NCBI GenBank assembly: GCA_937925475.1
Contig: CALEWH010000003.1
Span: 1 to 56,101 of the forward strand
Direction: 5' to 3'
From: an uncultured Clostridia bacterium
GTDB taxonomy: Bacteria; Bacillota; Clostridia; Christensenellales; UBA1242
Length of the DNA: 56,101 nt
Shown here: positions 23,291-49,560 of the stretch, piece after piece
How positions within the stretch are numbered: position 1 is the first letter of the stretch
How the letters are laid out: every line of letters begins with the position of its first letter
The notes under the pieces: generated by a model
What the model was told of the DNA's origin: nothing
What the model saw: the letters and a program-made list of their open reading frames with translations, nothing else
The model's database searches: none
Position numbers and translations under genes: made by a program

Positions 23291-23495
23291 ATTTTGTGTC
23301 ACCAACACTCTTTTCTTTGCCTATCGAAATCTCTTTTTCACACTCCAAATTTAGACAAAACATCTCTGTGCTTATATGTTGTCTTAGTGTAAGCAACCTT
23401 AGTTTTGGGTCAATAAGTGTACAAGTATCTATCGTCCAATAGTGCCAGTATAAAGGTCTATAAAAATGTACAAAAGGTGACTTTGAAATAAAAAG

Positions 23496-23524
23496 TTGAC
23501 AAATACAAAAAAATGGCATAAACT
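23496..23524 (+). promoter_or_regulatory. Sigma-A-type promoter of the asnA leader
   Basis: TTGACA (23496-23501), 17-nt spacer, TAAACT (23519-23524). Confidence 0.6.
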
Positions 23525-23549
23525 ATCTATATAACACAAGGAGAAAAAT

Positions 23550-23633
23550 ATGTTTAGACTTATCAACAACAATAACAATAATAATTCAAACACATATAAT
23601 ATGGGTTTCATTTTTGTTGTTGAAAGTCTTTAA
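23550..23633 (+). CDS. Asn-rich leader peptide MFRLINNNNNNNSNTYNMGFIFVVESL (27 aa)
   Basis: AAGGAG SD at 23538-23543, 6 nt before the ATG. Codons 6-12 are seven consecutive Asn codons (AAC AAC AAT AAC AAT AAT AAT), with two more at codons 14 and 17. TAA stop 17 nt before a strong terminator. asnA lies downstream. Confidence 0.7.
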   Translation: MFRLINNNNNNNSNTYNMGFIFVVESL

Positions 23634-23650
23634 TAAATAATACAAATCAG

Positions 23651-23686
23651 CACTCTCTTGAAACTCAATTCAAGGGAGTGTTTTTT
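23651..23686 (+). terminator. Intrinsic terminator T1 of the asnA leader
   Basis: CACTCTCTTGAA-ACTCAA-TTCAAGGGAGTG (12-bp stem with one G-U) followed by TTTTTT. Confidence 0.8.
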
Positions 23687-23706
23687 ATAAATATGACATT
23701 TATAAA

Positions 23707-23736
23707 ACAGTGCACTCCAAATGCACTGTTTTTTTA
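23707..23736 (+). terminator. Second intrinsic terminator T2 of the asnA leader
   Basis: ACAGTGCA-CTCCAAA-TGCACTGT followed by TTTTTTT. Confidence 0.7.
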
Positions 23737-23750
23737 TTTTAGGAGGAGAT

Positions 23751-23840
23751 ATGAGAAAGCGTAACGCCGTAGCGGGCGAAAATGACAATATAGTAAAAAA
23801 TAAAATAGTTAATAAGAAAAACAAAATTAATAAAAAATAA
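23751..23840 (+). CDS. Second upstream mini-ORF MRKRNAVAGENDNIVKNKIVNKKNKINKK (29 aa, Asn/Lys-rich)
   Basis: AGGAGG SD 5 nt before the ATG, immediately after the T2 U-run. The stop lies 23 nt before the asnA ATG. Whether it is translated is unproven. Confidence 0.4.
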   Translation: MRKRNAVAGENDNIVKNKIVNKKNKINKK

Positions 23841-23863
23841 AAAGTAAATAGGAGAACAAAGAA

Positions 23864-24856
23864 ATGTTTATCAAAGAAAAGTATACAAAACTAACATTAA
23901 TAGAAAAACAAAAATATATAAAATTAATAAAAGACAGATTTGAAAAAGAACTCAGCATAGCGCTTGACCTACTAAGAGTGTCAGCTCCACTGCTAGTTAC
24001 ACGAGAGTCGGGTCTACAAGACGACCTGTCGGGTGTCGAACGCACCGTAAGTTTTGACGTAGCAAAGGACGGCAAAGAAATAGAAATCGTACAATCGCTT
24101 GCAAAGTGGAAAAGATTTGCTCTTGCAAAATATGGTTTTGAAGTACATAAGGGACTTTACACTGATATGACTGCAATCAGGCGTGACGACAAAATGGACG
24201 AAACACATTCGATATATGTAGATCAATGGGACTGGGAAAAAGTAATAACCACAAAAGATCGAACAATGGCATATCTAAAAAGAACAGTGCGTCAAATTGT
24301 CAAAGCAATAATCAAAACAAGTGAGTATCTTGCAAAAAAAGGTTTTGACAAAGTAAAACTTGAAAAAGATGTGCATTTTGTCACATCCCAACAACTACTT
24401 GATATGTATCCCACACTCACTCCAAAACAACGCGAGTACGAGATAACAAAAAAGTACAAAACTGTGTTTATAATGCAAATAGGTGACACATTGAGTGACG
24501 GAAAACCACACGACCTTAGAGCGCCCGACTACGACGATTGGACTCTTGATGGTGACCTAATGTTTTATCACGAAGTATTGGATATGGCACTTGAAATATC
24601 CAGTATGGGAATCAGAGTCGACAAGGATAGTCTTATGTCCCAACTTCAAAAGGCAGACAAATTGGATCGACTTAAATACACTTATCACCAACTTATCCTA
24701 CAAGACAAACTTCCACTTACTATAGGTGGTGGAATTGGACAAAGCCGACTTTGTCAGTTGTTGTTGGGTCGAGCACATATTGGTGAAGTTCAATCATCGT
24801 ATTGGGACACCGAAACTTTGCGCGATTGCAAAGAAAAAGACATCGAATTGTTGTAA
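23864..24856 (+). CDS. asnA: Aspartate--ammonia ligase (asparagine synthetase A)
   Basis: 330 aa, collinear with E. coli AsnA: VQSLAKWKR, YVDQWDWEKV, HDLRAPDYDDW, SSMGIRVD, IGGGIGQSRL. Confidence 0.95.
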   Translation: MFIKEKYTKLTLIEKQKYIKLIKDRFEKELSIALDLLRVSAPLLVTRESGLQDDLSGVERTVSFDVAKDGKEIEIVQSLAKWKRFALAKYGFEVHKGLYTDMTAIRRDDKMDETHSIYVDQWDWEKVITTKDRTMAYLKRTVRQIVKAIIKTSEYLAKKGFDKVKLEKDVHFVTSQQLLDMYPTLTPKQREYEITKKYKTVFIMQIGDTLSDGKPHDLRAPDYDDWTLDGDLMFYHEVLDMALEISSMGIRVDKDSLMSQLQKADKLDRLKYTYHQLILQDKLPLTIGGGIGQSRLCQLLLGRAHIGEVQSSYWDTETLRDCKEKDIELL

Positions 24857-24954: not shown

Positions 24955-24981
24955 AAAAAGCAGTCACTTCGACTGCTTTTT
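24955..24981. terminator. Bidirectional terminator between asnA and the GNAT gene
   Basis: AAAAAGCAGTC-ACTTC-GACTGCTTTTT in a convergent intergene. Confidence 0.75.
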
Positions 24982-27173: not shown

Positions 27174-27247
27174 TGGAGCAGGTAGCGGGAATCGAACCCG
27201 CAACTAATGCTTGGGAAGCACTTGTTTTACCACTAAACTATACCTGC
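27174..27247 (-). tRNA. tRNA-Gly (anticodon CCC), CCA encoded
   Basis: The reverse complement folds as a cloverleaf: acceptor GCAGGTA/TACCTGC, D stem GTTT/AAAC, anticodon stem AGTGC/GCATT with loop TTCCCAA, T arm GCGGG-TTCGATT-CCCGC, discriminator U, then CCA. Confidence 0.9.
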
Positions 27248-28044: not shown

Positions 28045-28119
28045 TGGTGCGCCTAGAAGGATTCGAACCCTCGCTAATGGTTCCGAAGACCATTGTGCTA
28101 TCCATTACACCATAAGCGC
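28045..28119 (-). tRNA. tRNA-Arg (anticodon UCG), CCA encoded
   Basis: Reverse complement: acceptor GCGCTTA/TAGGCGC (one G-U), anticodon stem ATGGT/ACCAT with loop CTTCGGA, T arm GAGGG-TTCGAAT-CCTTC, discriminator A, then CCA. Confidence 0.85.
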
Positions 28120-49410: not shown

Positions 49411-49560
49411 ATGAAAAGGACTTATCAACCTAAGAAAAAACACAGAATTAAAGTTCATGGTTTTAGAAAAAGAATGCAAACTAAGGGTGGCAGAAATGTT
49501 TTAGCTCGTAGAAGAAATCGTGGCAGAAAACAACTTACACCTACAAACAACTCAAAATAG
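49411..49560 (+). CDS. rpmH: 50S ribosomal protein L34
   Basis: 49 aa, [43 protein letters not shown].... Below the ORF-track cutoff. SD AAGGAAGGG. Confidence 0.95.

Follow-up and report, generated by a model that had tools for sequence, protein, structure and literature searches.

A Putative Asparagine-Responsive Leader-Peptide Attenuator in Front of asnA in Uncultured Gut Clostridia

Introduction

The classical four-segment leader-peptide attenuator is that of trpL. The leader of hisL has seven consecutive His codons, and in its RNA the hairpins A:B, C:D and E:F alternate with the hairpins B:C and D:E. The leader-peptide attenuators known are those for Trp, His, Thr, Leu, Phe, Ile/Val and a few others, and most of them are from Proteobacteria. 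The genes asnA and asnS are otherwise controlled by T-boxes with an Asn specifier or by AsnC-type proteins. In translational attenuation of the ermC type, a leader open reading frame (ORF) and alternative pairings hide or expose the Shine-Dalgarno sequence (SD) of the main gene. Here we describe the leader of asnA, the gene for aspartate-ammonia ligase, in a stretch of 56,101 nucleotides (nt) of DNA from an uncultured Clostridia bacterium (Christensenellales, UBA1242; NCBI GenBank assembly GCA_937925475.1, contig CALEWH010000003.1, positions 1–56,101), which in its full length is referred to as the window. Judged from its sequence, the leader is very likely an Asn-responsive ribosome-mediated attenuator that couples the expression of asnA to the charging of tRNA-Asn.

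The general mechanism of leader-peptide attenuation is described in two articles (PMC2965389; PMC7968998). Examples from bacteria related to the one considered here are the His leader of the hisS/hisZ paralogs in bacilli (PMC2965389), the ilv-leu leaders of Listeria and Staphylococcus aureus (PMC5864092; PMC5794164) and the upstream ORF (uORF) candidates for cysS and aroF, with Cys and Phe as the amino acids (PMC8632094). Background on T-boxes is given in PMC2494555, and attenuation of the ermC type is mentioned in PMC2965389. In the open-access full-text literature we found no description of an Asn-codon leader or of an asnA attenuator. This agrees with an earlier reading of the same DNA, made from the sequence alone and called here the sequence-only reading, which had pointed to the leader and had been aware of no described Asn-codon leader for asnA. 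It had also held that attenuation of this kind is known mainly from Proteobacteria; since leaders from Firmicutes have already been reported, the occurrence in a member of the Clostridia is less exceptional than it had assumed.

The Leader of asnA and Its Conservation

The leader begins with a promoter of the sigma-A/sigma-70 type (23496–23524; features are on the + strand if not stated otherwise), which consists of the −35 box TTGACA (23496–23501), a 17-nt spacer and the −10 box TAAACT (23519–23524). With 10 of 12 matches to the consensus it is the top promoter-like site within the surrounding 2.2 kb. There follow an SD, AAGGAG (23538–23543), 6 nt 5′ of an ATG at position 23550, and the leader ORF itself (ORF1, 23550–23633), which has 27 codons plus a stop codon and encodes MFRLINNNNNNNSNTYNMGFIFVVESL. 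Nine of the 27 codons are Asn codons and seven of these are consecutive (AAC AAC AAT AAC AAT AAT AAT, 23565–23585); this run is the proposed sensor. An extra Asn codon at 23589–23591 is kept in nearly all homologs. Asn thus makes up 33% of ORF1 as compared to 6.1% of the long ORFs in the window, which has a GC content of 36%. Between ORF1 and asnA (23864–24856) lie two terminators, T1 and T2, and a second small ORF (ORF2). The leader region folds with a z-score of −6.7 relative to dinucleotide shuffles. All the features listed by the sequence-only reading (promoter, SD, ORF1, T1, T2, asnA and a 9-bp pairing to be discussed below) were found where it had placed them.

The leader was looked for in other genomes at two levels of relatedness. 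The first comparison was with 80 species-representative (GTDB) and 80 metagenome contigs listed with the most similar AsnA, almost all of them at 53–60% identity. Among the matches listed for the species representatives (the best 80, with at most 73% AsnA identity) no upstream ORF had a run of at least three Asn codons, and a contig from the human gut (L081) was the only locus with an Asn run among the 160 loci listed. Closer relatives came from a protein search, which returned at least 100 AsnA clusters at 74–87% identity, and for eleven of these the contigs were examined. The result was that the leader, made up of an SD, an ATG, a short Asn-rich ORF and T1, precedes the gene in 12 out of 12 distinct AsnA lineages at 74–87% identity (loci L161, L162, L163, L164, L166/L172, L168, L170, L173, L174 and L175, plus L081). 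The conserved Asn-run ORF that the sequence-only reading had proposed to look for in relatives is therefore there. The contigs of the relatives stem from independent sources, namely human and animal gut metagenomes and metagenome-assembled genomes (MAGs) that have just the label "Clostridia bacterium" at NCBI. The genes around the leader-asnA unit differ at almost every locus, which indicates that the leader travels with asnA and is not part of a syntenic block.

The conservation is of a characteristic kind. A promoter of the form TTGACA-16/17-TAnnnT is found 22–30 nt 5′ of the leader ATG in 11 of 11 homologs, the ATG of ORF1 is invariant in all of them, and an SD, of the GGAG type, is always present. 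Within the first 14 codons of ORF1 the 12 homologs have 41 AAC and 49 AAT, which are freely interchanged, and the sole replacements within the run are by Asp in L164 (NNDNNND) and by Ser in L163 (NSNNSNNSN) and L174. Past the run the peptide is not conserved: ORF1 of L161 is frameshifted (…YGFLFCC), and the ORFs of L164, L166 and L173 stop before the motif GGGUUUC. Despite this frameshift and these truncations the nucleotides past the run are nearly invariant (AUGGGUUUCAUUUUUGUUGUUGA, including GGGUUUC...UUGUUGUUGA). From the synonymous exchange in the one part, and the frameshifts and early stops over fixed nucleotides in the other, it follows that the Asn run is kept as codons and the 3′ part of ORF1 as RNA.

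AAT/AAC repeats arise easily in an AT-rich genome (36% GC), and one could therefore think of the Asn run as a chance low-complexity (AAY)n tract beside ordinary terminators. This is extremely improbable, because the run has been conserved in 12 lineages whose AsnA differ by 13–26% and because SD, ATG and frame have been maintained with it. Moreover, the run is unique: in the 56-kb window no second short ORF with SD, ATG and such an Asn run was found, nor were leader ORFs with runs of other codons, and the z-score of the fold given above also speaks against chance.

It may be added that gene callers have taken little notice of these ORFs. In L162 ORF2 (2865–2984, 39 aa) is called as a hypothetical protein, in L168 an N-terminally extended ORF1 (2576–2707, 43 aa) is called likewise, and elsewhere the leader ORFs are not called.

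Terminator, Antiterminator, and Protector

Terminator T1 (23649–23686), which would be the attenuator proper, has a 14-bp stem formed by 23649–23662 and 23669–23682, a loop ACUCAA and a U6 tract that ends at 23686; its RNAfold energy is −17.7 kcal/mol. The stem covaries: 6 of 12 pairs are changed on both sides, 98.5% of the alignment cells are paired, and none of 500 shuffles was as good (this alignment-based pair count was used for T1 only).

The structure that competes with T1 is composed of two helices. Its 5′ strand, region 2 (23601–23624), contains AUGGGUUUCA (23601–23610, with GGGUUUC at 23603–23609) for helix a and G23616 plus UGUUGA (23618–23623) for helix b. Its 3′ strand, region 3 (23646–23668), contains UCAGCAC (23647–23653), the base of the T1 5′ arm, and UGAAACUCA (23659–23667), which is the top of this arm plus loop. 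In helix a AUGGGUUUCA is paired with UGAAACUCA(U), and in helix b UGUUGA and G23616 are paired with UCAGCA(C); the two helices are separated by an internal loop and together span the whole T1 5′ arm. The sequence-only reading had drawn the 9 bp, one of them G-U, between 23602–23610 and 23659–23667 and had called the helix short. The pairing has held up, as all variants of the T1 loop are compatible with it; short it is not, since helix b extends the antiterminator over the rest of the arm.

In the window the antiterminator duplex has a predicted energy of −16.8 kcal/mol (p = 0.002 versus shuffles). In 11 of 11 homologs the energies are between −13.7 and −19.8 kcal/mol with p = 0.0005–0.03 (2000 shuffles of either strand), where it has to be kept in mind that the homologs are related and that the per-homolog p-values are therefore not independent. 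These energies are similar to those of T1 itself (−12 to −19 kcal/mol). When the footprint of a ribosome on the Asn run is blocked and the RNA is made to end before the T1 3′ arm, the minimum free energy (MFE) structure is the two-helix antiterminator in nearly all of the 11 homologs.

As a rule, terminators are under the least constraint in their loop. In the leaders, the loop segment of T1 occurs as GAAACUC, GAAAUCC, GAAACCC or GGAACCC, and with each of these variants all seven pairs with the invariant GGGUUUC are kept (11 of 11 sequences), the changes being solely C to U or U to C opposite G and A to G or G to A opposite U. The pairs were counted with code anchored on the motifs; MAFFT alignments set L163 and L174 one column off at GGGUUUC.

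A third set of pairings would keep region 2 occupied as long as no ribosome interferes. The 5′ strand of this protector hairpin, region 1 (23551–23572; stems P0 and P1, helices of the MFE structure), spans the start region of ORF1 and the first Asn codons (UCAACAACAA, 23563–23572). In its 3′ strand (23614–23635), which overlaps with helix b, the Asn codons find their partner in UUGUUGUUGA (23614–23623), and P0 is closed by AAGUCU/AAUA. The Asn codons are thus paired with a downstream GUUGUUG. Within the hairpin an apical hairpin, P1a (23588–23608; AAAC.CAUA with UAUG.GUUU), would hold GGGUUU when no ribosome is stalled. P1 is found in 10 of 11 single-sequence MFE structures, and both P1 and P1a are in the RNAalifold consensus of 11 homologs. 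The strand that P0 uses as partner covaries in L166 and L081, and the nucleotides of the protector 3′ strand are kept even where they are untranslated (L164, L166, L173) or read in another frame (L161).

The fact that the most conserved nucleotides of the leader (GGGUUUC and UUUUUGUUGUUGA) are constrained as RNA and not as codons, and that the Asn codons themselves form one strand of a conserved helix, raises the question whether translation is needed at all. The leader could be a switch in which a protein, a tRNA or a metabolite binds to the protector or to the GGGUUUC/UUGUUGUUGA region, and in which the Asn run would be no more than the A-rich side of a hairpin. We regard this as unlikely. 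An RNA of this kind has no use for an SD and an ATG at fixed spacing, which all the homologs have, or for a frame that is always kept through the run, and the substitutions within the run would not be expected to be synonymous or to Asp and Ser. Indeed, L163 (N S N N S N N S N) has retained Asn codons at the expense of the AAC:GUU helix, which is weakened. Also, the gene downstream makes exactly the amino acid of the run, and the leader resembles no T-box or other described RNA family even at E ≤ 10. At the gathering threshold, Rfam models matched only two tRNAs in the whole window, and the T-box (RF00230) was not matched. At E ≤ 10 only chance-level matches were obtained for 23450–23900, the best being PyrR with 24 bits (gathering score 54, E = 0.34). 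The amino-acid leader families of Rfam (His, Thr, Trp, Leu, Leu/Phe and others) gave no match.

A Possible Relay Between T1 and T2

The second terminator, T2 (23704–23735), has the stem CAGUGCA (23708–23714) with UGCACUG (23722–23728), which is extended by A/U pairs to 23704–23732 and followed by a U run; its RNAfold energy is −11.6 kcal/mol. Of 13 leader sequences examined, eight have T2 (window, L161, L162, L081, L166, L168, L170 and L175), while L163, L164, L173 and L174 do not have it.

The two terminators are complementary to each other. Region 4, which is the part GGAGUGU (23675–23681) of the T1 3′ arm, can alternatively be paired with region 5, the T2 5′ arm plus loop GCACUCC (23712–23718), that is with the 5′ half of T2, with −11.9 kcal/mol in the window. 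In 7 of 7 T2-bearing loci tested the energy of this pairing is between −11 and −16 kcal/mol (p = 0.001–0.0035 versus shuffles), and it is seen in L175, too. The T2 sequences have diverged among the homologs but remain matched to the T1 of the same locus. For the T1 3′ arm and its partner in T2 (5′ arm and loop), L081 has UGAGAGUG and CACUCUCA, L166 has AGAGGGUG and CACCCUCU, L162 has AGGGUGU and ACGCCCU, and L175 has GAGGGUG and CACCCUC. Since the complementary stretch reaches into the T2 loop, it would not be kept by the folding of T2 alone. Probably, to go by these sequences, T2 is not an independent back-up terminator but is coupled to T1 through complementarity. Of what the sequence-only reading had said about T2, the terminator itself stands (stem, U run and folding energy); a role as a terminator standing on its own is improbable, given the pairing with the T1 3′ arm.

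In the MFE structure the U tract of T1 and the A run before T2 form a hairpin of A and U only (23683–23707, UUUUAUAAAU with AUUUAUAAAA). It is probably just a palindrome as they occur in AT-rich DNA, but it could bring T1 and T2 together.

Strong as they are, both terminators are always there at equilibrium, which would fit with ORF1, T1 and T2 being a unit of their own, a mini-gene or small RNA, and with asnA or ORF2-asnA being transcribed from an own, unrecognised promoter 3′ of T2. The promoter scans cover only the sigma-70 type, and an attenuator RNA that has been terminated can have a function in trans, as is reported for rnTrpL (PMC7968998). Nevertheless, such a division of the locus is very improbable. 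In 11 of 11 homologs scanned there is no promoter-like site with at least 10 of 12 matches between T1 and asnA, whereas all of them have one 5′ of ORF1. The leader is tied to asnA in every genomic context examined. And a conserved antiterminator and conserved T1-T2 relay pairings would be without purpose in such a separate unit.

Proposed Mechanism of Attenuation

Taken together, the locus has 3′ of a promoter an SD-led ORF with cognate codons, a terminator, an antiterminator that excludes it and a pairing that protects the antiterminator strand, each recognised by computation. From these elements we infer how the ribosome would stall, in which kinetic order the RNA would fold and how asnA would respond to asparagine. 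Transcription would start a few nt past the −10 box at 23519–23524, and the first ribosome would load on the 27-codon leader ORF. When Asn is plentiful, this ribosome would cross the seven Asn codons and region 2 up to the stop codon and would mask the antiterminator strand; T1 would then form, and T2 if needed, and RNA polymerase would terminate before asnA. When there is no translation, the Asn codons would be paired with GUUGUUG and GGGUUU would be held in the apical hairpin (the 1:2 protector), so that region 2 would be unavailable and T1 would again form. When Asn-tRNA is scarce, the ribosome would stall at 23565–23585 and break the protector while region 2 (23601–23624) stays outside. 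Region 2 would be paired with the T1 5′ arm and loop (23646–23668) before the T1 3′ arm is made, and T1 would be blocked. The T1 3′ arm (23675–23681), being orphaned, would be paired with the 5′ half of T2 (23712–23718), which would disable T2 as well, and the polymerase would continue into ORF2 and asnA.

The geometry of the ribosome was estimated from generally known footprint sizes. With the last codon of the run (23583–23585) in the A site the leading edge would be at about 23595–23597, which would leave GGGUUUC at 23603 uncovered. A ribosome stalled in the run would open the protector hairpin and cover the strand with which GGGUUU is paired in P1a, leaving region 2 free. With the stop codon (23631–23633) in the A site about 23613–23646 would be protected, including the helix b strand 23616–23623. 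In L164, L166 and L173 the stop codon is 1–5 nt 5′ of GGGUUUC, and there a ribosome at the stop codon would therefore mask helix a instead.

Several points weigh against this mechanism and have to be considered. A ribosome at the stop codon of the window would not cover 23602–23610, as the sequence-only reading had supposed, but the helix b strand; it leaves GGGUUUC (23603–23609) uncovered. In the replete state termination would therefore depend on the masking of helix b plus the re-forming of P1a. At equilibrium the full-length leader folds into T1 and T2 even when the footprint of a stalled ribosome is imposed. Folding with a ribosome mask, which the sequence-only reading had recommended, was thus favourable in part: the nascent RNA that ends before the T1 3′ arm gave the antiterminator, the full-length leader did not. 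It follows that the switch must be kinetic, which is assumed here by analogy with the classical attenuators. The trp attenuator of E. coli likewise prefers the terminator at equilibrium. There is hardly any variation in region 2 and in the T1 5′ arm, so that the antiterminator is supported by one-sided compatible changes and by shuffle tests rather than by double compensatory changes, and the p-values, as already said, are not independent. Part of the T1-T2 complementarity could be there because T2 arose from T1 by duplication. The leader occurs in a single lineage; among the matches listed, L001 (73% AsnA identity) and 158 more distant asnA loci are without it. Finally, the evidence is computational throughout. 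On this basis the attenuator interpretation of the sequence-only reading is nonetheless supported by the conserved leader, the antiterminator and the protector.

It could be argued that ORF1 does not sense asparagine but a general slowing of translation, as caused by ribosome-targeting antibiotics or global starvation, in the manner of the erm, bmrCD and vmlR leaders. Any stall within the first 12 codons would free region 2, and several of the leader-peptide attenuators known in Firmicutes are antibiotic-responsive (PMC4191407; PMC9226507). However, the regulated gene is asnA in 12 of 12 lineages and never a resistance gene, and the leader has no known arrest motif. Seven consecutive codons for the same amino acid that are conserved are the hallmark of an amino-acid-specific attenuator. 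A general sensor of this type is therefore highly improbable, and asparagine is retained as the signal in what follows.

A Second Small ORF and the Shine-Dalgarno Sequence of asnA

ORF2 (23751–23840) is the second conserved upstream ORF. It is positioned directly 3′ of T2, or of T1 in the homologs without T2, it is preceded by a strong SD (23741–23748, AGGAGGAG; GGAG-type in all homologs), it encodes MRKRNAVAGENDNIVKNKIVNKKNKINKK, and its stop codon is 9 nt 5′ of the asnA SD. The peptide has a core, M-(K/R)-K-x-N-A-V-A-G-(E/D), which is found in 12 of 12 homologs and is encoded by AAYGCCGTAGCGGGCGA. The three indels between the ATG of ORF2 and the core are of 3 nt each. The GC-rich part of the core (23763–23779, AACGCCGTAGCGGGCGA) is nearly invariant and is predicted to form a small hairpin of −7.2 kcal/mol. 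Apart from L173, the core varies at third codon positions (AAC/AAT, GTA/GTG, GAA/GAG/GAT). The codons GCC, GCG and GGC scarcely vary, however, which indicates that there is a constraint at the level of the RNA, too. A second copy of the GC-rich core was found neither in the window (with up to 3 mismatches) nor in the 160 more distant asnA loci listed; from this single occurrence there is no sign of a regulon-wide operator. Behind the core the tails of ORF2 are variable and often rich in Asn and Asp (e.g., DDNNNNNNLRRNFK in L170).

In 9 of the 12 tabulated homologs ORF2 enters or ends beside a mimic of the SD, UUUAAGGAG/U (A); an anti-SD CUCCUUAAA (B) comes next, before the asnA SD UUUAAGGAG (C). 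The loci with A, B and C are L170 (2914–2955, 2983–2991), L081, L163, L164, L166/L172, L168, L173, L174 and L175. The duplexes A:B and B:C are of comparable energy, −8 to −18 kcal/mol, mostly with p ≤ 0.03 versus shuffles (nine relatives; L175 has the same elements). The MFE structure of the whole leader has A:B in five homologs; in four it has B:C. There is covariation of A with B, as L163, L168 and L174 combine GGAU with AUCC. These pairings suggest a translational tier of control: ribosomes that finish ORF2 would melt A:B, and B would then hide the asnA SD, whereas ribosomes held at the conserved Asn codon or in the Asn run would keep A:B intact and the asnA SD free.

The window itself does not have this switch. 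In its ORF2 region no anti-SD and no SD mimic were found, and the best B:C duplex has −1.1 kcal/mol (p = 0.76). The window, L161 and L162 are all without A and B, and in these three ORF2 ends 3–10 nt 5′ of the asnA SD. Any effect of ORF2 would here be by direct occlusion or by coupling.

Thus, the leader may be a two-tier sensor of asparagine, in which the Asn leader relays antitermination via the tandem terminators and ORF2 sets the translation of asnA, by the SD switch in most of the relatives and by termination on the asnA ribosome-binding site (RBS) in the window. We put this forward tentatively and consider it rather doubtful. The core of ORF2 could work through its peptide, through the RNA hairpin or through the two together. 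Neither the core AAYGCCGUAGCGGGCGA nor the peptide NAVAGE fits a known element, and it could be that they represent a new ribosome-arrest or ligand-sensing module.

The asnA Gene and Its Surroundings

The product of asnA (330 aa) is identified as aspartate-ammonia ligase by PF03590 (E = 1.4e-97) and TIGR00669 (335.6 bits, cutoff 292.8), and the SD of the gene is AGGAG at 23850–23854. Downstream of asnA there is a hairpin that is flanked by A and T runs (24955–24981). The terminator scan listed it on the − strand, but the sequence is symmetric, and it is probably a bidirectional terminator that ends both the monocistronic asnA transcript and the convergent gene of a GNAT protein.

In L170 the genes downstream of asnA on its strand (L170 4020–6180; L168 4007–4687) are a 260-aa ORF without family match and then asnS, the gene for asparaginyl-tRNA synthetase (AsnRS; NF003037, 595 bits), and in L170 the leader may control an asnA-x-asnS operon. 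The presence of AsnRS two genes 3′ of asnA indicates that free Asn, which AsnA makes, is what the lineage loads onto tRNA-Asn. The charging of tRNA-Asn should therefore report free asparagine in this lineage.

The window has genes for tRNA-Gly(CCC) (27174–27247) and tRNA-Arg(TCG) (28045–28119), both on the − strand, and none for tRNA-Asn. A short ORF rich in Arg and Lys (49411–49560) resembles ribosomal protein L34; if it is rpmH, the contig may include the region of the chromosomal origin.

Outside the lineage asnA is preceded by other sequences. In L001, a MAG from roe-deer caecum which is the closest species representative listed (AsnA 73%), asnA starts with GTG and has an unrelated 5′ region of 290 nt (1830–2117) with a hairpin followed by Ts (tgggtaggc…ctaccca agtagtttt), which is possibly a different, uncharacterised leader. 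The view of the sequence-only reading that asnA of Firmicutes is usually under T-box control does not apply here, as none of the 20 closest species representatives among the matches listed has a T-box directly 5′ of asnA. In L007, an Acutalibacteraceae MAG, a T-box (812–1045, 124 bits) is located about 1.5 kb 5′ of asnA and presumably controls the intervening gene or an operon that contains asnA.

Significance and Comparison With Known Systems

The leader would add the specificity for asparagine to the list of leader-peptide attenuators, and it would do so in a lineage of uncultured gut Clostridia that has so far been closed to genetics. It would also indicate that attenuators of this type can evolve and last in Gram-positive bacteria of low GC content. 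With about 330 nt the RNA is compact, and the predictions, which can be made helix by helix, are testable in a heterologous host; a possible use would be as an asparagine-responsive genetic part. The annotation of small ORFs stands to gain, too, since gene callers miss the leaders or label them as hypothetical (L162, L168). The proposed relay of two terminators and the presence of ORF2 at the RBS of asnA exceed the textbook layout and could reveal principles of design.

The similarities with trpL of E. coli and Salmonella are extensive. Both leaders have a short SD-led ORF with tandem codons for the end product, a 1:2 pairing in which region 1 comprises the regulatory codons, an alternative 2:3 pairing and an intrinsic terminator 3:4. 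In both, the antiterminator is weaker than the terminator, which would make for a kinetic switch. In trpL, region 2 is masked by a ribosome that has come to the stop codon or close to it, and in the asnA leader such a ribosome would mask at least part of this region. The differences are that the asnA leader would sense Asn with seven consecutive codons, as compared to two Trp codons, that it is in front of the gene for a single amidation enzyme, and that it is found in uncultured Clostridia. Its antiterminator has two helices with an internal loop, and there are an extra terminator and an extra small ORF. In sequence the two leaders are not similar.

With hisL of Salmonella and E. coli the asnA leader has in common the seven identical codons and the relay, which here is 1:2, 3:4 and 5:6 versus 2:3 and 4:5. 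Unlike in hisL, 3:4 (T1) and 5:6 (T2) are both complete intrinsic terminators with U tracts. The relay in the asnA leader would therefore switch off two terminators in series, of which T2 is optional (absent in 4 of 12 relatives).

The leader-peptide attenuators of Firmicutes and Tenericutes are likewise composed of an amino-acid-specific uORF and an intrinsic terminator, and most of them were found by comparative genomics, but none is specific for Asn or linked to asnA. Control by T-boxes or AsnC-type proteins has in common with the proposed mechanism that expression goes up when tRNA-Asn charging or asparagine falls, and T-boxes also act by antitermination in the 5′ leader. The asnA leader does not have a T-box structure, however, and its proposed sensor is the translating ribosome rather than the binding of a tRNA or a protein.

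The region of ORF2 is best compared with attenuation of the ermC type. In 9 of 12 relatives the SD mimic UUUAAGGAG competes with the asnA SD UUUAAGGAG for the anti-SD CUCCUUAAA at similar energies. In contrast to ermC there are three segments instead of four, the presumed signal is Asn codons and not an antibiotic, and A and B are missing from the window, L161 and L162. Judged by computation, the leader of asnA is very likely an attenuator of the trp/his type and thus an addition to the classical mechanism, not a new principle; it is ORF2 which, if it were truly a new kind of sensor, would go beyond the classical principle.

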